Source: a virus
Lineage: Duplodnaviria > Heunggongvirae > Uroviricota > Caudoviricetes
IMG/VR virus record: IMGVR_UViG_2541047941_000006
Reading direction: 5' to 3' (one strand)
Length of the DNA: 23,448 nt
Below the pieces are notes generated by a model. It was not told the DNA's origin, ran no database searches, and saw nothing but the letters and a program-made list of their open reading frames with translations. Positions 1 to 23,448 of this stretch are shown here, piece after piece. The translations under genes were made by a program, and so were the position numbers. The stretch's first letter is position 1; every line of letters begins with the position of its first letter.

Positions 1-1158
1 ATGCTCACCGTTAAGCAGATTGAAGCAGCAAAGCCGAAAGAAAAACCATACCGCCTTCTCGATGGTAATGGCCTGTACCTTTATGTTCCTGTATCCGGGA
101 AAAAGGTATGGCAGCTTCGCTACAAGATTGACGGTAAGGAGAAAATCCTGACCGTCGGAAAATATCCGCTTATGACTTTGCAGGAAGCAAGGGATAAGGC
201 ATGGACTGCGAGGAAAGACATCTCGGTTGGCATCGATCCGGTAAAGGCGAAAAAGGCTTCGTCTAACAACAATTCATTTAGTGCGATTTACAAGGAATGG
301 TACGAGCACAAGAAGCAAGTCTGGTCAGTAGGCTATGCAACTGAACTTGCCAAAATGTTTGATGACGACATTTTACCCATCATCGGCGGTCTTGAGATTC
401 AGGATATTGAGCCGATGCAACTGCTGGAAGTAATCCGCAGATTTGAAGATCGCGGTGCAATGGAGCGAGCCAACAAAGCCCGCAGAAGATGCGGCGAGGT
501 TTTTCGTTACGCTATTGTCACCGGAAGGGCTAAATATAACCCGGCACCTGACCTTGCAGACGCCATGAAAGGATACCGCAAGAAGAACTTCCCGTTCCTT
601 CCAGCAGACCAGATGCCTGCATTCAACAAAGCACTGGCAACATTTTCAGGAAGTATCGTATCGCTCATTGCGACAAAAGTTTTACGTTATACAGCCCTAA
701 GAACGAAAGAGCTTCGTTCCATGCTATGGAAGAACGTCGATTTTGAAAACAGGATTATCACCATCGACGCCAGTGTGATGAAGGGACGCAAAATTCATGT
801 GGTCCCGATGTCAGACCAGGTGGTTGAACTTCTCACTACGCTAAGCTCAATCACCAAACCAGTCTCAGAGTTTGTTTTTGCCGGGCGCAACGATAAGAAG
901 AAGCCAATCTGCGAGAACGCGGTATTGCTTGTGATCAAACAAATCGGCTATGAAGGTCTGGAAAGCGGTCACGGATTCAGGCATGAATTCAGCACGATTA
1001 TGAACGAGCACGAATGGCCTGCTGACGCTATTGAAGTGCAGCTGGCACATGCCAACGGCGGATCTGTGCGCGGTATTTACAACCATGCTCAGTATCTCGA
1101 TAAGCGCAGAGAAATGATGCAGTGGTGGGCGGATTGGCTTGATGAAAAAGTGGAGTAA
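1..1158 (+). CDS. intS: Tyrosine recombinase / prophage integrase, P4-type (IntS-like, KplE1/CPS-53 family)
   Basis: 385-aa ORF starting at base 1; N-terminal KPKEKPYRLLDGNGLYLYV motif typical of P4-family integrases and a C-terminal catalytic region (HGFRHEF ... RGIYNH, the catalytic Tyr lying in the last motif). Recalled as matching E. coli IntS; paired with a TorI-like excisionase and tRNA-derived att core at the other end of the element. Confidence 0.85.
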   Translation: MLTVKQIEAAKPKEKPYRLLDGNGLYLYVPVSGKKVWQLRYKIDGKEKILTVGKYPLMTLQEARDKAWTARKDISVGIDPVKAKKASSNNNSFSAIYKEWYEHKKQVWSVGYATELAKMFDDDILPIIGGLEIQDIEPMQLLEVIRRFEDRGAMERANKARRRCGEVFRYAIVTGRAKYNPAPDLADAMKGYRKKNFPFLPADQMPAFNKALATFSGSIVSLIATKVLRYTALRTKELRSMLWKNVDFENRIITIDASVMKGRKIHVVPMSDQVVELLTTLSSITKPVSEFVFAGRNDKKKPICENAVLLVIKQIGYEGLESGHGFRHEFSTIMNEHEWPADAIEVQLAHANGGSVRGIYNHAQYLDKRREMMQWWADWLDEKVE

Positions 1159-1367
1159 TCCGGACCGTACTTCTTTATCCAGGCATAAAGGCTGTGGGTG
1201 GTGATATCGAGACGTGTTGCAACGCTGGCAACAGAATAACCGCGATCAACAACCTGTTTGACTGCTTCAGTTTTAAACTCTTCGGGATAACGCTTACCGC
1301 TCATGGGCACCTCTCTTTAAGCCATCTTAAATGACTCTGAGGTGTCTGTTAAACCCGTGGCGATTCA
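1159..1367 (-). mobile_element. IS3-family IS fragment (left end plus 5' part of orfA), truncated exactly at the intS stop codon
   Basis: Minus-strand ORF begins MSGKRYPEEFKTEAVKQVVDRGYSVASVATRLDITTHSLYAWIKKYGPD (HTH-type OrfA N-terminus) with RBS AGAGAGGTG upstream; similarity ends at about 1159, where the frame reads through the intS 3' end. The minus-strand terminus begins TGAATCG at 1367. Confidence 0.6.
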
Positions 1368-1370
1368 AAA

Positions 1371-1820
1371 CTGCGTGTTACGTTCGCCCTGGACTGTTGC
1401 GATCGTGAAGCCATAGACTGGGCCGCAAGCACGGGAGGTTACGATAAAGCGACAGTGCAGGATGTCATGTTAGGAGCGATAGAAAAACGCTTTGGCGATA
1501 AAGTACCGGAACAGTCCATCCAGTGGCTGACAGATAACGGTTCAGCGTATAGAGCGCATGAAACACGGCAGTTCGCCAGAGAGTTGAATCTGGAGCCCTG
1601 CACAACGGCAATCAGCAGTCCTCAGAGTAATGGAATGGCAGAAAGGTTCGTGAAAACGATGAAGGAAGACTACATCGCGTTCATGCCGAAACCGAATGTA
1701 AGAACGGCATTGCATAATCTTGCAGTGGCGATCGAACATTACAATGAAAACCATCCGCACAGTGCGTTGGGTTATCGCTCTCCGCGAGAATATCGACGTC
1801 AGCGGGTAACGTTAACTTAA
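1371..1820 (+). pseudogene. IS2-like (IS3 family) transposase OrfB, C-terminal DDE fragment
   Basis: In-frame translation from 1371 gives [14 protein letters not shown]...[25 protein letters not shown]...[26 protein letters not shown]...[14 protein letters not shown], the conserved C-terminal half of IS2-type OrfB. No orfA or N-terminal part is present in the same orientation; an IS2-like right terminal repeat follows to about 1852. Confidence 0.7.
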
Positions 1821-1861
1821 GATACACCCCCTGTCTGGAAATAAGGGGGCAAGAACAATGA

Positions 1862-2614
1862 TCAGATTCCCTGGTGAGTAAGAATTTTACTTTCTGAACT
1901 CCTCTGAGAGTATTGACTTGGAGAAACACCAAAATAACGTCTAAATACATAAGTAAAGTATGAGACACTGGCATAACCACAGACCTTAGCTACTTTACTA
2001 ATAGGATAACAACGAGTGCTGAGTAAATATTCAGCCATTTGCATCCTCTCATCAAGTATGATCTTACTGAATGATACCCCCTCTTCTTTCAATTTCATCT
2101 TTAGTAAACTTTCGCTGAGATATAATCTTGATGATATATCCTTAAGACGCCATGATGCAGATAAATCCGTATGAATAATCGTTTTAACTTTAGCCCCTGT
2201 GCTTTTCAAACATCCAAACAGAAATACTCCAAATTGTTTTTCAGAAGAAAATGCAGAGAGACATGTAAAAGCAATAGACTCATCAAAAATTTCTATGTAT
2301 TCAGCACAGTGATTAGCCCAACTAATTAATCCTTTAATTAAACTGAAGTCAGCAAAGTTTATTTTTAAATAAGATGGATATTCCCTACAATCAGAAATAC
2401 CCCTTAAGTTATTAGCTTTCAAATAGCGACTAATAAACTCAGCGCCAAAATCCGCCACTATCACTCTTTCAGGATATGTCAGGAAAAAATCTCTAGAGCT
2501 AGAGTCGACAAGTACAGATGAACCTCTCTCCAGAAACACACTCTCTTTTCCGAAATAAACATCAAAGGACTCCAAAATCAATATAACTGAACATGTAGTT
2601 GCCATATCATCCAC
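1862..2614 (-). CDS. AraC/XylS-family transcriptional regulator (AppY/EnvY-like), low-GC cargo
   Basis: 250-aa ORF; C-terminal double HTH signature (WRLKDISSRLYLSESLLKMKLKEEGVSFSKIILDERMQMAEYLL...KVAKVCGYASVSYFTYVFRRYFGVSPSQY); AT-rich coding and upstream region; flanked by the IS2-like fragment and IS1. Confidence 0.8.
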   Translation of the reverse strand: MDDMATTCSVILILESFDVYFGKESVFLERGSSVLVDSSSRDFFLTYPERVIVADFGAEFISRYLKANNLRGISDCREYPSYLKINFADFSLIKGLISWANHCAEYIEIFDESIAFTCLSAFSSEKQFGVFLFGCLKSTGAKVKTIIHTDLSASWRLKDISSRLYLSESLLKMKLKEEGVSFSKIILDERMQMAEYLLSTRCYPISKVAKVCGYASVSYFTYVFRRYFGVSPSQYSQRSSESKILTHQGI

Positions 2615-2826
2615 CCAATTTAACTGAAACCAGGATGAAGTATATGCATATAAAGTTCACTTTGCCAAACTTCAGTATAAAAAACCACATAAAAAATAGG
2701 GTGTGATAAAAAATACCGTAACAATAAAGCAAAGGATTATAAAATCCGTTACAGTTACAAATGATACTCAAGAAACAATTCCTTAGGAAAAACTTATTTA
2801 CAGCCAATAAGGGTAATGACTCCAAC

Positions 2827-3330
2827 TTATTGATAGTGTTTTATGTTCAGATAATGCCCGATGACTTTGTCATGCAGCTCCACCGATTTTGAGAACGACA
2901 GCGACTTCCGTCCCAGCCGTGCCAGGTGCTGCCTCAGATTCAGGTTATGCCGCTCAATTCGCTGCGTATATCGCTTGCTGATTACGTGCAGCTTTCCCTT
3001 CAGGCGGGATTCATACAGCGGCCAGCCATCCGTCATCCATATCACCACGTCAAAGGGTGACAGCAGGCTCATAAGACGCCCCAGCGTCGCCATAGTGCGT
3101 TCACCGAATACGTGCGCAACAACCGTCTTCCGGAGACTGTCATACGCGTAAAACAGCCAGCGCTGGCGCGATTTAGCCCCGACATAGCCCCACTGTTCGT
3201 CCATTTCCGCGCAGACGATGACGTCACTGCCCGGCTGTATGCGCGAGGTTACCGACTGCGGCCTGAGTTTTTTAAGTGACGTAAAATCGTGTTGAGGCCA
3301 ACGCCCATAATGCGGGCTGTTGCCCGGCAT
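2827..3330 (-). CDS. insB: IS1 InsB (expressed as InsAB' by -1 frameshift)
   Basis: 167-aa ORF overlapping the insA 3' end in the -1 frame, canonical IS1 arrangement. Confidence 0.85.
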
Positions 3331-3524
3331 CCAACGCCATTCATGGCCATATCAATGATTTTCTGGTGCGTACCGGGTTGAGAAGCGGTGTAAGTGAACT
3401 GCAGTTGCCATGTTTTACGGCAGTGAGAGCAGAGATAGCGCTGATGTCCGGCGGTGCTTTTGTCGTTACGCACCACCCCGTCAGTAGCTGAACAGGAGGG
3501 ACAGCTGATAGAAACAGAAGCCAC
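3249..3524 (-). CDS. insA: IS1 InsA
   Basis: 91-aa [46 protein letters not shown]... with zinc-finger and HTH, canonical IS1 InsA. Confidence 0.9.
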
Positions 3525-3673
3525 TGGAGCATCTCAAAAACACCATCATACACTAAATCAGTAAGTTGGCAGCATCACCGGTCGCCACCATATACGGCAG
3601 TTCTCAGGCTCAACTTTCTGAAAGGCTCGGGTGATGTAATATGCGCGTGAGATGCGCTGTGAAATTCAGATGT

Positions 3674-3697
3674 AAAAAAAGCCCCGCATCGCGAGGC
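3674..3697 (-). terminator. Putative intrinsic terminator downstream of Rz
   Basis: On the minus strand GCCUCGC-GAU-GCGGGGC hairpin (one G-U pair) followed by UUUUUUU, about 30 nt after the Rz stop. Confidence 0.45.
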
Positions 3698-3729
3698 TCA
3701 TTAAATGGACTTTGTGATTTGCAAAAAAA

Positions 3730-4188
3730 TTATTTCAGGCATTGCGTCCTGATGTATTCCTGCAGGTAGTTAACCTGCGCGGTTATCTTGTCGATTCCAC
3801 TTCGGAGACGGTAATAATTGAGTTCAGCATCTGCTGTAAGTCCTGGGCTTTCTCCATCGCCCATGCCGCTGGCTCCGGTCGTTGACTTTGCACAGGTGGC
3901 GGCGACTTGCAGGCGCTTACGCCCAGCAGAAACATCAGCACGGAGACTTTCGATAGTCGCGTTAGCATCAGCAAGCTCCTTTGTGTATCTTGCGTCGAGT
4001 TCTGCTACATCACGTTGACGCTTCCGCATGTCAGCGATGGTGGCGTTCGCCTTCTCCAGTTCACTGGCCTTGTTATCGCGCTGCTCTTTGTAGGCGATTG
4101 CGTTATCACGGTAATGATTAACAGCCCATGACAGGCAGACGATGATGCAGATAACCAGAGCATAAATAATCGCGGCGACTCTGCTCAC
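3730..4188 (-). CDS. Rz: Rz inner-membrane spanin (i-spanin)
   Basis: ORF with N-terminal TMD ([28 protein letters not shown]) and coiled-coil-like body, closely resembling lambda Rz. Probable GTG start at 4188 (track ORF starts at TTG 4203); overlaps the endolysin stop. Confidence 0.8.
3783..3974 (-). CDS. Rz1: Rz1 outer-membrane lipoprotein spanin (o-spanin), embedded in Rz +1 frame
   Basis: 63-aa ORF wholly inside Rz; signal peptide with lipobox LLGVSAC followed by a Pro-rich segment ([16 protein letters not shown]), classic Rz1. Confidence 0.7.
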
Positions 4189-4718
4189 TGATCTATCCCC
4201 CAACAGGCTAATGCGCTTTCCTGGTCACGACGAATAACCTGTCCATAGCAGTTATTTGAACGTATGCGGCAATCGCGCCCACCATCTTTTATCCACCAGC
4301 GAATCGCCTCGCATGCACCTTTACGATCACCGGCATTCAGCCGCTTATAAAACGTCGACGGGAAACACTTACCGGGGCCAATGTTATAGGGACAAAATGA
4401 CGCGATACCCGCTTTCTGTGGTTCGGTCAGTGGCACTTTAATATTGCGCTCCACCCATGCCAGCGCCTTATCCCGTTCAATGGCGTTAACCTGGTCGCAT
4501 TTTTCCTTCGACAGTTTCATACCGGGAAAAACGGGTTTTCCATCCACCACCGTGGCACCCCGACAGATGGTCCAGATGCCGGAACCATCGCGGTATGCCG
4601 TTGTGTGGTTACCTTCTTTTTCATCCAGAAACTGGTCGAGAATATCAGGCGCAGGCGCACCGACGGCAATCAGTGCCAGAACGGCAGCCGACAGGCCGTA
4701 TCTGATTTTTGCGTTCAT
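4185..4718 (-). CDS. R: Phage endolysin (lysozyme), probable SAR type, RrrQ-like
   Basis: 177-aa ORF; weakly hydrophobic Ala/Gly-rich N-terminus ([17 protein letters not shown]) ahead of the catalytic domain; sits between the pinholin/ydfR-like genes and Rz. Confidence 0.85.
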
Positions 4719-5061
4719 GGATATTTATCAGGATTTATCGGTTTCTGAACCCTGGATATGTTTATCTGTCCCGGCCTGTTGAATCAGGCAAGGAATAGTT
4801 AAATACAATAGAGAGGATTGTTTATGGACAATAGCACCATTTCTCTACAGGAGTTGCTCGACTGCATTTCCAAGCTTCGGGATGATGTAAATGCCCTTAC
4901 TGTCGCATTTTAATATCTGGCATTCTCAATTCCCAAGGAACAAATGCAACCAACACTGGCATCGCTCCAGCTTGAATCACTCAACCCCAAATGGTCCCAG
5001 CAACAACAAAATTCTTTCAAGTGGCTGGCGGTATTACTGGAAGAAAAATATGCTGGTGAAA

Positions 5062-5406
5062 TTACCATTTCGGCGGAGTATTCAGAGAACCAGTAATTCT
5101 TCCCGGTAGCTTTCCTTTGTAGGTTATCCACACATTCTGCGCCTCTAAAATTATGGGGCGCTTTTCCGGCGACAGCTCATCCCCTTCACATAACCCGGCA
5201 GCAACATCCAGGAAGACCTGTCTGATGCTCCTTCTGGCTGCTGCCTCATAAAACTCCAGCGCGGCACCTTCAACACGGTCCAGCGAGATGTCCAGGTCAA
5301 AAATTTCACCGTCAAAGCGTTTTTTGTCCCGTAACGCTAAAGTTACCGTAACTTTATTCTCAAAATTGCGGATCCCTTTCACAATCAGTTCATAGTTTTG
5401 AGTCAT
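5062..5406 (-). CDS. YdfR-like protein of unknown function in the lysis cassette
   Basis: 114-aa ORF starting 5 nt after the holin stop with RBS GGGAGAG; same holin-ydfR-lysozyme-Rz order as the Qin prophage lysis cassette (recalled). Confidence 0.65.
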   Translation of the reverse strand: MTQNYELIVKGIRNFENKVTVTLALRDKKRFDGEIFDLDISLDRVEGAALEFYEAAARRSIRQVFLDVAAGLCEGDELSPEKRPIILEAQNVWITYKGKLPGRITGSLNTPPKW

Positions 5407-5410
5407 TGAA

Positions 5411-5626
5411 TTACTCTCCCCGTGCAGCCTTACGCTTGTCTTCTTTAATCTTGAAATAAAGGTTTGTCAGGTACGTCAGCAGGCCAAATACCAGGCTACC
5501 CAGCACTCCAATTGCCGCCCACTGTGAGGGCGTGACTTTATCTAGCAGCTGTAAAAACCAGTACCCGGCACTACCTGCTGAGGTGCCATAGGCGACACCC
5601 GTTGTTAACTTATCCATGGATTTCAT
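5411..5626 (-). CDS. S: Class II holin / pinholin (S21-like) with dual-start motif
   Basis: 71-aa [31 protein letters not shown]...[35 protein letters not shown]; two TMDs; Met1-Lys-Ser-Met4 dual start typical of pinholin/antiholin pairs. Confidence 0.9.
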
Positions 5627-5734
5627 AACCCCACCTCGCAGACAAAGCGGGTGTAAATTGAGGGAATACTACGAAACGTAACAGACTCGGAGTCAGTGAA
5701 TAACTCAGGTATTGGGTTATCAGCTAATATCGAG

Positions 5735-5770
5735 ACTCAAAAAATGGAAAAACCCGCTCGACGGCGGGTT
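5735..5770 (-). terminator. Intrinsic terminator upstream of the holin (candidate tR' of the late operon)
   Basis: On the minus strand AAACCCGCC-GUCGA-GCGGGUUU hairpin followed by UUUUUCCAUUUUUU, about 110 nt upstream of the holin start. Confidence 0.5.
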
Positions 5771-6199
5771 TAAGCTGTGTGACGAAGTAACCACTCTTAA
5801 CAGCATAACCAATTTTTTACGTACGTAAACCACTAAATGATATTTGCGAGAATGCTACCGAGTGTTCAAAACACCACCACAAATACATAAGAAAACCTCA
5901 ACAAATAACCAACAAATAATTTCCAGTGTTATTTTTAGCCGATTTAAATTGAACCTTCAAATTATAGAGCACTTATAAATAACAGCCGTTAATATAAATT
6001 GGCTAATAGATTTATTTTTATTCAGCCAAGAGCTATGAATAGGATTCGATAGAAAAAAGTTCAGATAAAAATAGAGATCTACTTCACAAATCAAACGAGA
6101 AACCAAAACTTACATCTTGAAATAATCACATTGATTAGATGAATATTTATCGCGCAGTGACATCATTTTTTAATAATAGTTCAAAAAAAAGGGCTCACG

Positions 6200-7297
6200 A
6201 TGAAAAAATTAACAGTGGCAATTTCTGCTGTAGCTGCATCAGTACTGATGGCGATGTCTGCTCAGGCAGCTGAAATTTATAATAAAGACAGTAACAAGCT
6301 GGATCTGTACGGGAAAGTTAATGCTAAGCACTACTTCTCCTCTAATGATGCAGATGATGGTGATACTACTTATGCCCGTCTTGGCTTCAAAGGTGAAACC
6401 CAAATCAACGATCAACTGACTGGTTTCGGTCAGTGGGAATATGAATTCAAAGGCAACCGCGCTGAATCTCAAGGTTCCTCCAAAGACAAAACCCGTCTTG
6501 CATTTGCAGGCCTGAAATTCGGTGACTACGGCTCAATCGATTACGGCCGTAACTACGGTGTAGCATACGACATCGGTGCGTGGACTGACGTTCTGCCAGA
6601 ATTCGGTGGCGATACCTGGACCCAAACAGATGTGTTCATGACTGGTCGCACCACTGGTGTTGCAACCTATCGTAACAACGACTTCTTTGGTCTGGTTGAT
6701 GGTCTGAACTTTGCTGCTCAGTACCAAGGCAAAAACGATCGTAGCGATTTCGATAACTACACTGAAGGTAACGGTGATGGCTTCGGTTTCTCTGCTACCT
6801 ATGAATACGAAGGATTCGGTATCGGTGCAACTTATGCGAAATCTGATCGTACCGACACTCAAGTTAATGCAGGGAAAGTTCTTCCTGAAGTATTTGCTTC
6901 CGGTAAAAATGCAGAAGTTTGGGCCGCAGGTCTGAAATATGATGCTAACAACATTTACCTGGCCACTACCTATTCTGAAACCCAGAATATGACTGTATTT
7001 GCTGATCACTTCGTTGCTAATAAAGCCCAAAACTTCGAAGCTGTTGCACAATATCAGTTCGATTTCGGTCTGCGTCCGTCCGTTGCTTACCTGCAATCTA
7101 AAGGTAAGGATCTTGGAGTATGGGGCGATCAGGACTTAGTCAAATATGTTGATGTAGGTGCAACCTATTACTTCAACAAAAATATGTCTACTTTCGTTGA
7201 TTACAAAATCAACCTGCTTGACAAAAATGACTTCACTAAAGCACTCGGTGTAAGCACTGATGACATCGTTGCTGTAGGTCTGGTTTACCAGTTCTAA
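6200..7297 (+). CDS. nmpC: Outer-membrane general porin, prophage-encoded NmpC/Lc/OmpD type (intact)
   Basis: 365-aa ORF with signal peptide ([30 protein letters not shown]), porin motifs ([31 protein letters not shown]) and C-terminal VGLVYQF; lies between Q and the lysis genes on the opposite strand, as nmpC does in DLP12. Confidence 0.85.
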
Positions 7298-21413: not shown

Positions 21414-21428
21414 TGGCGGTTTTTTATT
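21406..21428 (+). terminator. Intrinsic terminator after the 55-aa ORF
   Basis: CCGCC-tgat-GGCGG hairpin followed by TTTTTTATT. Confidence 0.55.
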
Positions 21429-21470
21429 GCCTGATTTGCAGGTTCGATTCCCTATTCGGAGATAGCACTC

Positions 21471-21671
21471 ATGCAACACGAACTACAGCCTGATTCACTG
21501 GTTGATTTGAAATTCATCATGGCTGATACTGGCTTCGGTAAGACCTTCATCTATGACCGGATTAAGTCCGGCGACCTGCCTAAAGCCAAAGTTATCCACG
21601 GGCGAGCAAGATGGTTATATCGTGACCATTGTGAATTCAAAAATAAGCTCTTAAGCCGCGCCAATGGGTAA
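21471..21671 (+). CDS. torI: Excisionase / recombination directionality factor, AlpA-family HTH (TorI-like)
   Basis: 66 aa MQHELQPDSLVDLKFIMADTGFGKTFIYDRIKSGDLPKAKVIHGRARWLYRDHCEFKNKLLSRANG; winged-helix excisionase pattern; last gene before the att core at the end opposite the integrase, as in KplE1. Confidence 0.8.
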   Translation: MQHELQPDSLVDLKFIMADTGFGKTFIYDRIKSGDLPKAKVIHGRARWLYRDHCEFKNKLLSRANG

Positions 21672-21744
21672 AATAGCGGGTAAAATATTTCTCACATCTA
21701 AAAAACACCATTCCAATCAATCCCCTGCCGCTTCAAGTAGATGT

Positions 21745-21759
21745 CTGCAGGGGACACCA
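21745..21759. other. attR core: 15-bp copy of a tRNA-Arg (argW-like) 3' end
   Basis: CTGCAGGGGACACCA, the acceptor-stem/CCA 3' end of a tRNA, present as an isolated fragment 74 bp after torI; no full tRNA around it. Confidence 0.65.
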
Positions 21760-22200
21760 GATACCCTTCAAACGAAATCTACCTTCACCCCGTAAAAGAT
21801 GGGTTTGGCAGCACACTTGCCTTATATCTACTCATTTTTACTGCAACAGGTTGAAATCTCAGCACTGTCAGAAAGCGCTGATGACTAAACAGCCCTGGGC
21901 CGGGCGATGTAACCATCACACAGAATCCTGATAGCGAAATATGGCGTGACTCGATACTTCACTCCGCAATGCATTCCTTGATGAATTCGCAGGACCGTGA
22001 TACACGGGACAGGTCACTGAATGACGACAATGTCCTGGAAATCAGCGAACCGCGCATCTGAAGTACATTTGAGCGACTGTACCAGAACATGAATGAGGCG
22101 TTTGGATTAGGCGATTATTAGCAGGGCTAAGCATTTTACTATTATTATTTTCCGGTTGAGGGATATAGAGCTATCGACAACAACCGGAAAAAGTTTACGT

Positions 22201-23448
22201 CTATATTGCTGAAGGTACAGGCGTTTCCATAACTATTTGCTCGCGTTTTTTACTCAAGAAGAAAATGCCAAATAGCAACATCAGGCAGACAATACCCGAA
22301 ATTGCGAAGAAAACTGTCTGGTAGCCTGCGTGGTCAAAGAGTATCCCAGTCGGCGTTGAAAGCAGCACAATCCCAAGCGAACTGGCAATTTGAAAACCAA
22401 TCAGAAAGATCGTCGACGACAGGCGCTTATCAAAATTTGCCACGCTGTATTTGAAGACGGATATGACACAAAGTGGAACCTCAATAGCATGTAACAGCTT
22501 CACTAATGAAATAATCCAGGGGTTAACGAACAGCGCGCAGGAAAGGATACGCAACGCCATAATCACAACACCGATAAGTAATGCATTTTTTGGCCCTACC
22601 CGATTCACAAAGAAAGGAATAATCGCCATGCATAGCGCTTCGAGTACCACCTGGAATGAGTTGAGATAACCATACAGGCGCGTTCCTACATCGTGTGATT
22701 CGAATAAACCTGCATAAAAGACAGGAAAAAGTTGTTGATCAAAAATGTTATAGAAAGACCACGTCCCCACAATAAATATGACGAAAACCCAGAAGTTTCG
22801 ATCCTTGAAAACTGCGATAAAATCCTCTTTTTTTACCCCTCCCGCATCCGCCGCTACGCACTGGTGATCCTTATCTTTAAAACACATGTTGATCATCATA
22901 AATACAGCGCCAAATAGCGAGACCAACCAGAAGTTGATATGGGGACTGATACTAAAAAATATGCCGGCAAAGAACGCGCCAATAGCATAGCCAAAAGATC
23001 CCCAGGCGCGCGCTGTTCCATATTCGAAATGAAAATTTCGCGCCATTTTTTCGGTGAAGCTGTCAAGCAAACCGCATCCCGCCAGATACCCCAGGCCAAA
23101 AAAGAGCGCCCCCAGAATTAGACCTACAGAAAAATTGCTTTGCAGTAACGGTTCATAAACGTAAATCATAAACGGTCCGGTCAAGACCAGGATGAAACTC
23201 ATACACCAGATGAGCGGTTTCTTCAGACCGAGTTTATCCTGAACGATGCCGTAGAACATCATAAATAGAATGCTGGTAAACTGGTTGACCGAATAAAGTG
23301 TACCTAATTCCGTCCCTGTCAACCCTAGATGTCCTTTCAGCCAAATAGCGTATAACGACCACCACAGCGACCAGGAAATAAAAAAGAGAAATGAGTAACT
23401 GGATGCAAAACGATAGTACGCATTTCTGAATGGAATATTCAGTGCCAT
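22201..23448 (-). CDS. cscB: Sucrose:H+ symporter, LacY-family MFS permease (CscB)
   Basis: 415-aa 12-TMD ORF whose start codon is the last base of the window; MALNIPFRNAYYRFASSYSFLFFISWSLWWSLYAIWLKGHLG... recalled as CscB; oligosaccharide:H+ symporter family motifs. Confidence 0.85.
   Translation of the reverse strand: MALNIPFRNAYYRFASSYSFLFFISWSLWWSLYAIWLKGHLGLTGTELGTLYSVNQFTSILFMMFYGIVQDKLGLKKPLIWCMSFILVLTGPFMIYVYEPLLQSNFSVGLILGALFFGLGYLAGCGLLDSFTEKMARNFHFEYGTARAWGSFGYAIGAFFAGIFFSISPHINFWLVSLFGAVFMMINMCFKDKDHQCVAADAGGVKKEDFIAVFKDRNFWVFVIFIVGTWSFYNIFDQQLFPVFYAGLFESHDVGTRLYGYLNSFQVVLEALCMAIIPFFVNRVGPKNALLIGVVIMALRILSCALFVNPWIISLVKLLHAIEVPLCVISVFKYSVANFDKRLSSTIFLIGFQIASSLGIVLLSTPTGILFDHAGYQTVFFAISGIVCLMLLFGIFFLSKKREQIVMETPVPSAI

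Follow-up and report, generated by a model that had tools for sequence, protein, structure and literature searches.

The earliest account of adjacent deletions promoted by IS1 is said to be that of Reif and Saedler (1975), for the gal region of E. coli K-12. The K-12 prophage DLP12, which lies at argU with intD beside its early genes, retains bor together with fragments of nohD and of tail-fibre genes. Prophages of the KplE1 type carry intS at their attL end, transcribed inward, and torI at attR, with a 16-nt core of the sequence CTGCAGGGGACACCAT (PMC2951348). Where an insertion sequence has lost its target-site duplication, this is caused by adjacent deletions or by recombination between IS copies, and such deletions are often small at first and lengthen over time (PMC11708052). 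We find that the stretch of phage DNA analysed here (the window, 23,448 nucleotides) is, as read from its genes and ends, one whole remnant of about 22 kb of an argW-type (KplE1/CPS-53-like) lambdoid prophage, and that of its three IS elements IS1 alone, by comparison with related prophages, marks the big deletion.

The remnant is bounded by intS on one side and by torI, the attR core and cscB on the other (Table 1), such that IntS and TorI are encoded at opposite prophage ends and the 16-nt core lies at attR, as in the KplE1/CPS-53 recombination module. The window begins at the intS ATG; in STEC409, C7 and F404 intS is annotated beside the tRNA-Arg gene argW at a distance of 161 bp, and the IntS C-terminus (DEKVE, then stop) is as in K-12 IntS. 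At the opposite end, homology to K-12 and to TL20 ends at the attR core, and the identity between window 21421-23448 and the torI-attR-transporter stretch of C7 is 99.0%; beyond the transporter, C7 continues with a sugar kinase gene, cscA, a LacI-family regulator gene and dsdA. The idea that the intS and Rz sides are two unrelated loci joined by IS1, which was based on none of 5,426 complete E. coli genomes covering 80% of window 1-6000 and on the joining of the IS1 to yadM in STEC409, was dropped, being contradicted by torI, the attR core, cscB and the gene order of C7 and F404. Because intS and torI/attR/cscB bound one prophage, the loss of the morphogenesis genes from between intS and Rz is a real, collinear deletion.

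The argW prophages of C7 and F404 retain all structural genes. C7 reads intS, scars, AraC-family gene, tail, head, terminase, lysis and Q, and onward to torI and cscB; F404 reads intS, scars, AraC-family gene, IS1, tfa, stf, lom and J, onward to terminase and trkG, after which come Rz, R, S, ompC and quuD, then ren, P and O, and then gam, bet and exo. These two prophages confirm the gene order that a preliminary description of this DNA had assumed for the prophage type, and also its statement that structural genes are absent between Rz and intS, where we find the duplication-free IS1 exactly at the junction. The flanks of the window IS1 have the same order, strand and relative orientation as in C7 and F404, and this unchanged orientation is what a deletion, but not an inversion, predicts. 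From IS1 to the Rz stop codon there are ~28.3 kb in F404 versus 150 bp in the window. The lost DNA would come to roughly 24-28 kb and would have held the tail-fibre assembly, tail, head and terminase genes, to 150 bp past Rz; since the nearest comparators are mosaic, with 82-96% identity in the lysis and early regions, both size and content are estimates.

Table 1. Features of the window, followed by the junction pairs of the same IS1 (left position / right flank) in the window and in comparator genomes.
Feature	Position	Strand	Evidence or genomes
intS, KplE1/CPS-53-type tyrosine integrase, full length 385 aa	1..1158	+	1 aa unlike K-12 IntS
ISX-like IS3-family fragment, IRL terminus through orfA codon 49; remainder deleted	1159..1367	-	98.6% identity to full copy
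ISEc48-like (IS3 family, IS2 group) fragment, 3' 150 codons of orfB and own IRR	1368..1857	+	97.4% to F404 ISEc48
AraC/YdeO-like regulator gene, intact cargo between IS scars and IS1	1862..2614	-	HTH_18 and HTH_AraC domains
Retained region upstream of AraC gene	2615..2811		ends at left IS1 junction ...GCCAATAAG
Complete IS1, 768 bp, insA and insB', no target-site duplication	2812..3579	-	ends, length, flanks
150 bp left downstream of Rz; right breakpoint at 3580 (GGTCGCCAC...)	3580..3729		100% identical to uninterrupted prophages
Rz spanin gene, first intact gene right of scar	3730..4203	-	Phage_lysis, E=2e-39
Rz1, embedded in Rz	3783-3974		ORF
Endolysin gene (R-type lysozyme)	4185..4718	-	ORF; EM20-18-50 homologue annotated lysozyme
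Holin gene (essD / P21 S type)	5411..5626	-	Phage_holin_2_1, E=2e-35
torI, KplE1 excisionase (recombination directionality factor)	21471..21671	+	66 aa, identical to K-12 TorI
attR core CTGCAGGGGACACCAG	21745..21760	+	15/16 match to KplE1 16-nt core
cscB-type oligosaccharide MFS transporter gene, host DNA right of attR	22201..23448	-	TIGR00882, E=1.7e-178
IS1 junction	2811 / L002-11361		13P477T, 2009C-3133, AR_0369
IS1 junction	2620 / 11361		Res13
IS1 junction	1856 / 11361		ETEC1746
IS1 junction	2575 / about 11481		F404
IS1 junction	2811 / ompC		E2
IS1 junction	2811 / yadM		STEC409
IS1 junction	2811 / helicase region		2 HS-C
IS1 junction	2811 / Rz-downstream		this window

The element at the junction has the size of an IS1 (~768 bp), and its terminal repeats, GGTAATGAC and GGTGATGCT, fit the imperfect IS1 repeats GGTGATGCTGCC / GGTAATGACTCC. 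Both insA and insB' are intact (Zn_ribbon_InsA and HTH_Tnp_IS1, DDE_Tnp_IS1 domains), the A6C frameshift motif (TTAAAAAAC) is present, and identity to eight IS1 copies read from other genomes is 99.1-99.5%. As had been seen before, this complete element has differing 9-mers at its two sides, GCCAATAAG on the left and GGTCGCCAC on the right; nothing longer than a 4-mer is common to the two 15-nt flanks, and each 9-mer was found just once in the window. The missing duplication does not take the element out of IS1 but marks this copy as out of a simple-insertion context; as a positive control, an IS1 of B-JRPT-4119 that sits in the same module does have a 9-bp duplication (window 2587-2595). IS1-free genomes (NCTC9064) continue the left site as ...GCCAATAAG followed by TAAGACACTT, and a left junction identical to that of the window is present in up to ~120 of the 5,426 genomes. 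Across the right breakpoint, uninterrupted prophages read ...CCCCGAGAT followed by GGTCGCCACCATATAC, with GGTCGCCAC there once. The window's own IS1/Rz-downstream junction (exact 40 nt) was unmatched in GTDB species representatives, JGI metagenomes and IMG/VR, and was found in no collection searched. Relative to the eight copies compared, the window IS1 has substitutions at IS positions 652 and 721, both in its right-hand 120 bp, the first of which leads to InsA G21D, a change absent from the other copies read. No IS1 among >72,000 matches in the collection has both, which made a test for a chimeric IS1 by these two right-end substitutions uninformative. Two changes in 768 bp are in line with how far the DNA around the IS1 has diverged.

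Between the IS1 and the older scars lies a regulator gene with a G+C content of 34%, whose best NCBIfam match is YdeO (below the cut-off of that model) and whose product differs at 3 amino acids from that of the copy found at 313 kb in O157:H7 EC4115. The gene is very probably the orthologue of the one for PatE (z0321), the AraC-like regulator encoded by O-island 8 of EDL933.

On the other side of the IS1, prophages that are 100% identical over the 150 bp downstream of Rz carry a GIY-YIG nuclease gene after Rz, not bor/iss, and in iss-bearing prophages iss is 32 bp from Rz. Although bor had been counted among the lost genes, it was probably never present in this prophage and would not have been lost in the deletion. 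Use of the 150-bp flank as a marker of the progenitor was dropped, as the match examined (WEC) is a DLP12-position prophage, with the appY-ompT-envY end seen. The early region of the remnant has relatives at icd, again a case of lambdoid mosaicism, and because of such mosaicism the 150-bp flank is not diagnostic of a locus.

The two IS fragments beside intS, which are named here after the RefSeq annotations of K-12 and F404 and not after ISfinder, were correctly described before as an IS3-family orfA fragment at the intS stop codon and an opposed IS2-like orfB fragment that it meets at about 1367-1371; we place the exact join at 1367/1368. ATCC 8739 has a full-length IS3-family element to which window 1149-1368 aligns over 220 nt with 98.6% identity (E=1e-112); a K-12 relic of this element is annotated 'ISX'/insX. 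The fragment has an IRL terminus ...GATTCA at 1367, that is, the TG...CA end of the IS3 family, then orfA, in the form of a minus-strand ORF (ATG at 1304) that encodes 49 residues of an IS3-family OrfA (Pfam HTH_Tnp_1, E=7.6e-15). Its homology overlaps the last 10 nt of intS, and since this overlap is explained by a GTGGA(G/A) microhomology, the fragment begins at the intS stop codon. The similarity to the full-length copy ends at window 1149-1158, and ~210 nt of the element are left, where the ATCC 8739 transposase gene alone has 1,151 nt; this remnant is a dead fragment. The ISEc48-like remnant is dead as well: window 1367-1858 is 97.4% identical to the full ISEc48 in F404, and the remnant shows 94.3% identity to the ST95-32 copy and ~70.7% to IS2. 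It has rve (from profile position 24 of 102) and rve_3 domains and an IRR, with its outer end at ~1857, that can be aligned to the IRL of a full copy, but it is without orfA, the 5' part of orfB and the IRL. Only window 1368-1857 matches, and in the full ST95-32 copy the alignment starts at position 1794.

The end of ISX at 1367 was made by transposition, meaning that ISX had inserted into ISEc48, whereas ISX and intS were joined in a separate microhomology deletion; the two fragments are not halves of one event. The order of steps would be that ISX transposed into orfB of an ISEc48 lying just past the stop codon of the AraC gene, and that a microhomology-mediated deletion then took the remainder of ISX along with the 5' part of ISEc48 and the DNA next to intS, with its endpoint at the intS stop. 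Both fragments and the AraC gene are kept in C7 (window 1-2811, 99.57%) and in F404 (window 1-2575, 99.53%), and are also found in the b-region of att-lambda prophages that retain tail-fibre genes; O157:H7 has the ISEc48 fragment and the AraC gene. Their presence in the same form in prophages with every morphogenesis gene identifies the fragments as older scars, borne along by the module and with no relation to the big deletion. The alignment to intact prophages that had been suggested for defining breakpoints accordingly places this deletion at IS1 and not at the fragments.

The same IS1 was found with eight pairs of left and right junctions across the window and ten comparator genomes, none of them with a duplication, and its flanks vary on both sides among the eleven loci read (Table 1). 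In the form in which the IS1 is resident, position 2811 is joined to AGCCTTCTTG; the smaller deletions of the series are of 191-955 bp. In 13P477T, the 550-bp case, the junction query had just two matches in the whole genome, a sign that IS1 copies are few there, and this fits stepwise transposase-mediated adjacent deletions. Taken together, these junctions form a fan of nested IS1-anchored deletions, with the features expected of adjacent deletion: the IS is intact and without a duplication, one flank is constant and the other variable, and the flanks are collinear with the undeleted order.

How, then, did the IS1 come to lie next to the Rz flank? We put a little better than even chances on a resident IS1 upstream of the AraC gene from whose end one deletion was made, by adjacent deletion. 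The tail-proximal cargo module (intS, ISX fragment, ISEc48 fragment and patE-like gene) would first have held the IS1 197 bp upstream of the AraC ORF (start 2614), and the IS1 transposase would then have carried out an intramolecular transposition, in which one end of the IS attacks a target on its own DNA molecule; the intervening DNA would be lost, the IS1 and one flank would stay, and no target duplication would arise. Directly observed are the anatomy of the locus, the missing duplication, the collinear flanks and the series of alternative flanks; from these we infer the enzymatic route and precisely what was lost. We regard as possible, though rather doubtful, RecA-dependent homologous recombination between the resident IS1 and a second IS1 in direct orientation, independently inserted 150 bp downstream of Rz, which would leave a single hybrid IS1 flanked by one half of each former duplication. 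The same product (intact IS1, unrelated 9-mers, collinear flanks) is expected from it, the single GGTCGCCAC at the uninterrupted site is what a former duplication requires, and the clustering of both IS1 substitutions at the right might point to another IS1 copy as the origin of this end; moreover, many E. coli genomes give 30-40 IS1 matches, and recombination between IS copies is a common cause of missing duplications (PMC11708052). However, none of the 5,426 genomes matched a synthetic query with an IS1 placed at the right site, no IS1 in the collection has both substitutions and could have been the donor, and second copies are a poor explanation for many small one-sided deletions, one of them in the genome with two junction-query matches. 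A synthetic query in which IS1 sits at the left site as a simple insertion, flanked by a 9-bp duplication, likewise found this state in 0 of 5,426 genomes, its only match being a two-piece one in B-JRPT-4119, at a different insertion point; with no parental state in the complete E. coli genomes searched, adjacent deletion and recombination between direct IS1 copies are not separable.

Two further readings depart more strongly from adjacent deletion. It is improbable that no DNA was lost and that the morphogenesis genes lie elsewhere, through an IS1-mediated inversion or translocation or through a collapsed assembly of two IS1 copies. Inversion or translocation would predict reciprocal IS1 flanks, ...GAGAT-GGTCGCCAC on one side and GCCAATAAG-TAAGACAC or AGCCTTCTTG on the other. 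In STEC409 this IS1 abuts yadM, which is necessarily a rearrangement, yadM being ~2.3 Mb from argW on the K-12 map; the junction of the window is unique among all collections searched, contigs are classically misjoined at repeats such as this one of 768 bp, and the source genome was read in this window only, such that the lost block could sit elsewhere in it. Yet both flanks belong to one prophage and are oriented as for a simple deletion, where an inversion would flip one of them, and a chance misjoin seldom links two collinear points of one prophage. The proposal of the preliminary description, that the three IS elements are one graveyard that jointly caused the loss of terminase, head, tail and bor genes, draws on the position of all three between intS and Rz and on every junction being abnormal, but we now give it hardly any credence: the fragments are unchanged in C7 and F404 next to intact structural genes and occur in the att-lambda prophages with tail-fibre genes, and the DNA downstream of Rz is of the GIY-YIG type.

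It might also be asked whether this IS1 is a long-lived 'deletion hub', moving between phages and between sites (argW, att-lambda and a third) as part of the patE cargo module and time and again removing the morphogenesis genes of differing lambdoid prophages; since the IS1 is oriented toward patE, the expression of that gene might be altered too. We think this unlikely; were it true, the integrase/excisionase pair, the lysis cassette and an acid-resistance regulator gene would be spared each time, and prophage domestication at these loci would be channelled by one inherited IS and not by random decay. The deletion itself is ordinary prophage decay, IS1-anchored deletions and the decay of argW prophages both being well documented, and opens no new question. 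It is a clear example of an IS turning a functional prophage cryptic, in which one event removes the virion genes and spares the excision module (IntS, TorI, attR), the lysis cassette, the patE-like regulator gene and an ompC-type porin gene. The comparison also parts old, module-borne scars from the deletion scar, a distinction that matters when prophage history is read from IS debris.

Set against the known systems, the locus is similar to the IS1 deletions at gal and to the IS-adjacent deletions of the Lenski long-term lines (PMC11708052) in having an intact IS, a deletion exactly from the IS end and no target duplication, and in the series having one fixed and one variable flank, nested and growing from one anchor. 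It differs from them in that the series extends across natural isolates and two chromosomal loci and not one laboratory lineage, in that the parental simple insertion was recovered from none of 5,426 genomes, and in that the enzymatic route is inferred. With CPS-53 / KplE1 of K-12 the remnant shares the site, the recombination module, intS and torI at opposite ends and the loss of the morphogenesis genes. However, CPS-53 has gtrABS (yfdGHI) after intS, a length of 10.2 kb and no lysis, Q or immunity genes, whereas the remnant has ~22 kb, IS scars and a patE-like gene where CPS-53 has gtr, and an IS1 at its deletion junction; it keeps S-R-Rz/Rz1, the ompC-type porin gene, Q, nin, O and P homologues and gam-bet-exo, and has XRE-type regulator homologues where immunity genes lie. 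DLP12 of K-12 is the counterpart for the lysis and late genes, which match essD, the ompC-type porin gene (nmpC in K-12), quuD, rusA, ybcO, ninE and ybcN in related prophages, with Rz and the endolysin corresponding to rzpD and rrrD. Like the remnant, DLP12 has an AraC-family gene at its tail-proximal end (appY there, patE-like here), IS elements and large internal deletions, but unlike in DLP12 the cut here is clean, from IS1 to 150 bp past Rz.

The intS gene at the left end and torI, the attR core and a cscB-type transporter gene at the right identify the whole window as a single remnant of an argW prophage that extends over about 22 kb from intS to torI-attR. This is the prophage type described by Panis et al., with an inward-transcribed intS at attL and torI at attR, and the intS/torI module is also found in HK620, Sf6 and others (PMC2951348). 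The stretch from torI through attR to the transporter is common to the window and Escherichia coli C7 (99.0% identity), where a sugar kinase gene, cscA, a LacI-family regulator gene and dsdA follow. Homology to annotated relatives gives an ordinary lambdoid order from IS1 to torI, and the gam-to-torI arm is 98.2% identical to the argW prophage of TL20, which retains terminase and head genes. We dropped the idea that IS1 joins two unrelated loci; the right end of the window is the torI-attR of an argW prophage. IntS, TorI and the attR core all survive, and the remnant may still be able to excise, like KplE1 in K-12; attL lies outside the window. The OmpC-type porin gene (nmpC in K-12 DLP12) is cargo located past the holin gene and before the Q homologue; in strain E2 a deletion by the same IS1 extends into the part of this gene that encodes the signal peptide.

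Features of the argW prophage remnant, from left to right
Feature	Position	Strand	Remarks
intS	1-1158	+	full-length ORF; product 1 residue off K-12 IntS, same DEKVE* end
AraC/YdeO-like (patE-like) ORF	1862-2614	-	250 codons; stop codon four bases past the ISEc48 fragment
IS1	2812-3579		768 bp; both terminal repeats, insA, insB', A6C frameshift motif
Rz/Rz1, R, S	first gene block after IS1		homology to annotated relatives
ompC-type porin gene	6200-7297, after S	+	365 aa; homology to annotated relatives
Q and nin-region homologues	after porin gene		homology to annotated relatives
ren, P, O homologues	after nin region		homology to annotated relatives
XRE-type regulator homologues	at immunity-gene position		homology to annotated relatives
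gam, bet, exo	last block before torI		homology to annotated relatives
torI	21471-21671	+	product identical to K-12 TorI
attR core	21745-21760	+	15/16 match to the 16-nt KplE1 core
cscB-type transporter gene	beyond attR core		right end of window

The preliminary description had held two IS fragments and IS1 jointly responsible for the loss of the morphogenesis genes and bor, and structurally complete relatives now place IS1 at the joint of a deletion of about 24-28 kb. The argW prophage of C7 (about 41 kb, contractile-tail type) reads intS, ISX fragment, ISEc48 fragment, AraC gene, tail, head, terminase, lysis and on to torI, and is 99.57% identical to window 1-2811. F404, with a lambda-like tail, has intS, the fragments, the AraC gene, IS1, tfa, stf, lom and J through to terminase, trkG, Rz, R, S, ompC and quuD and on to gam, bet and exo, with 82-96% identity to the window in the lysis and early regions. 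From the end of IS1 to the Rz stop there are about 28.3 kb in F404, and the same interval is about 24 kb in C7 and about 25 kb in WEC (a DLP12-position prophage), versus 150 bp in the window, a comparison that lends good support to a collinear deletion with IS1 at its joint. The IS1-marked deletion is thus real, but IS1 alone is responsible and the fragments are bystanders, because both occur in C7 and F404 (99.5-99.6% identity) together with every morphogenesis gene. Nor does bor probably belong among the lost genes: the 150 bp retained beyond Rz are 100% identical to prophages that continue with a GIY-YIG nuclease gene, DUF1398, ylcI and nohD, whereas iss/bor, in prophages having one, lies 32 bp from Rz, and the progenitor probably had no bor.

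The fragments themselves are as first described, an IS3-family orfA piece at the intS stop meeting an opposed IS2-like orfB piece, with the boundary at 1367/1368. Right after intS comes a minus-strand ORF for residues 1-49 of an IS3-family OrfA (HTH_Tnp_1, E=7.6e-15), and window 1149-1368 is 98.6% identical over 220 nt to a complete element in ATCC 8739, of which K-12 carries a relic in CP4-6 (annotated ISX/insX). This alignment stops at the true left terminus of the element (...GATTCA, 1367) and on its other side overlaps the last 10 nt of intS. Comparing window 1149-1161 (GTGGAGTAATCC) with the K-12 intS end (GTGGAGTGA) and the IS (GTGGAAGAATCC) puts the joint within a 5-6-nt microhomology. 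The TAA stop may therefore be a hybrid codon of intS and IS sequence made by microhomology joining, and IntS is exactly full length, with its stop codon inside the junction. From 1368 the plus strand carries the final 150 codons for an IS2-group OrfB (rve, rve_3), and the fragment reaches the element's own right terminal repeat near 1857; it is 97.4% identical to the full ISEc48 copy of F404, 94.3% to that of ST95-32 and about 70.7% to IS2 itself. The genuine ISX terminus at 1367 shows that ISX transposed into orfB of an ISEc48 located just past the stop codon of the AraC gene; a later microhomology deletion took what remained of ISX and the 5' part of ISEc48, along with any DNA that had stood after intS. 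K-12 has gtrABS at that position, from which one can only guess that gtr-type genes disappeared here.

Both fragments are old scars travelling with a cargo module. They are also found, alongside the final 84 bp of intS, in the b-region of att-lambda lambdoid prophages. There the module (locus L017, 2659-2890; also L006, L003, L018 and L019) begins with only window 1075-1158 of intS and directly adjoins a P arm and core of lambda type (14/15 match for the core), next to ybhB, which means that this scarred cargo has passed between phages whose integrases differ. O157:H7 EC4115 has the ISEc48 fragment and AraC gene as well, close to a P4-like integrase gene, and in B-JRPT-4119 they sit next to the pao operon. 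The AraC/YdeO-like gene is intact and AT-rich (34% G+C), its product has 3 aa differences from the EC4115 copy at 313 kb, and its position makes it a very probable orthologue of PatE (z0321, O-island 8), an activator for acid-resistance genes that is itself encoded by a prophage. Upstream of the gene's start, 197 bp away, is IS1, with insA/insB' on the same strand (window 2615-3579); the element could change the gene's expression by read-through or by loss of an upstream silencing sequence. In the IS1-free NCTC9064 locus (L002, 11195-11250), the non-coding stretch between the AraC gene and a tail-fibre assembly gene holds what resembles a reversed 3' half of a tRNA gene, perhaps left over from an old attachment site within the cargo.

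As initially reported, the complete IS1 has differing flanking 9-mers (GCCAATAAG and GGTCGCCAC), and we found no target-site duplication, the longest string common to the flanks being a 4-mer. The left junction, GCCAATAAG followed by IS1, occurs in up to about 120 of 5,426 complete genomes, a count in which some matches are split in two pieces and might lack the precise junction. The eleven loci we read yielded eight left-right junction pairs, all of them free of a duplication, while the control, a simple IS1 insertion elsewhere in the same module (B-JRPT-4119), has one of 9 bp. The Rz-side junction of the window was not found in complete E. coli genomes, GTDB representatives, JGI metagenomes or IMG/VR.

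IS1 junction pairs (left, window coordinate; 11361 is a position in the IS1-free NCTC9064 locus)
Left	Right	Genome	Site
2811	11361 (550-bp loss)	13P477T, 2009C-3133, AR_0369	att-lambda
2620	11361	Res13	att-lambda
1856	11361	ETEC1746	argW
2575	about 11481	F404	argW
2811	inside ompC	E2	att-lambda
2811	yadM	STEC409	argW
2811	helicase region	2 HS-C	adjoining another integrase gene
2811	150 bp beyond Rz	this window	argW

In STEC409 (L001, 11580 onward) the argW IS1 abuts the yad fimbrial operon (yadM, yadL, yadK, yadC, panB), and because this operon lies far from argW on the K-12 map, the joint indicates a large IS1-mediated chromosomal rearrangement.

Since one IS1 end is fixed, its partners vary and some deletions are only a few hundred bases long, IS1 transposase may have made adjacent deletions extending stepwise from the fixed end, a source for the junction to which we give an even chance. 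One carrier of the 550-bp deletion has only two matches to the junction query, which fits this mechanism. Recombination between two direct IS1 copies would yield the same product, and we consider it rather unlikely; of the two parental states, neither a simple insertion at the left site nor an IS1 at the right-hand site was found in the 5,426 genomes. The IS1 copy is neutral as to a hybrid origin: its substitutions at IS positions 652 (window 3463; InsA G21D, in the zinc-ribbon region) and 721 (window 3532; GAGGTG to GAGATG, just upstream of the insA start), both near the end joined to new DNA, are absent from 8/8 other copies compared, and none of more than 72,000 matches in complete E. coli genomes has both. 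The lost block may instead have been relocated, or the assembly collapsed across IS1, although the collinear orientation that both flanks keep speaks against either, and all readings besides adjacent deletion and IS1-by-IS1 recombination are, even together, improbable. Adjacent deletions extending stepwise have been reported in long-term evolution lines (PMC11708052), and the event in this prophage is a fresh instance of a well-known process.
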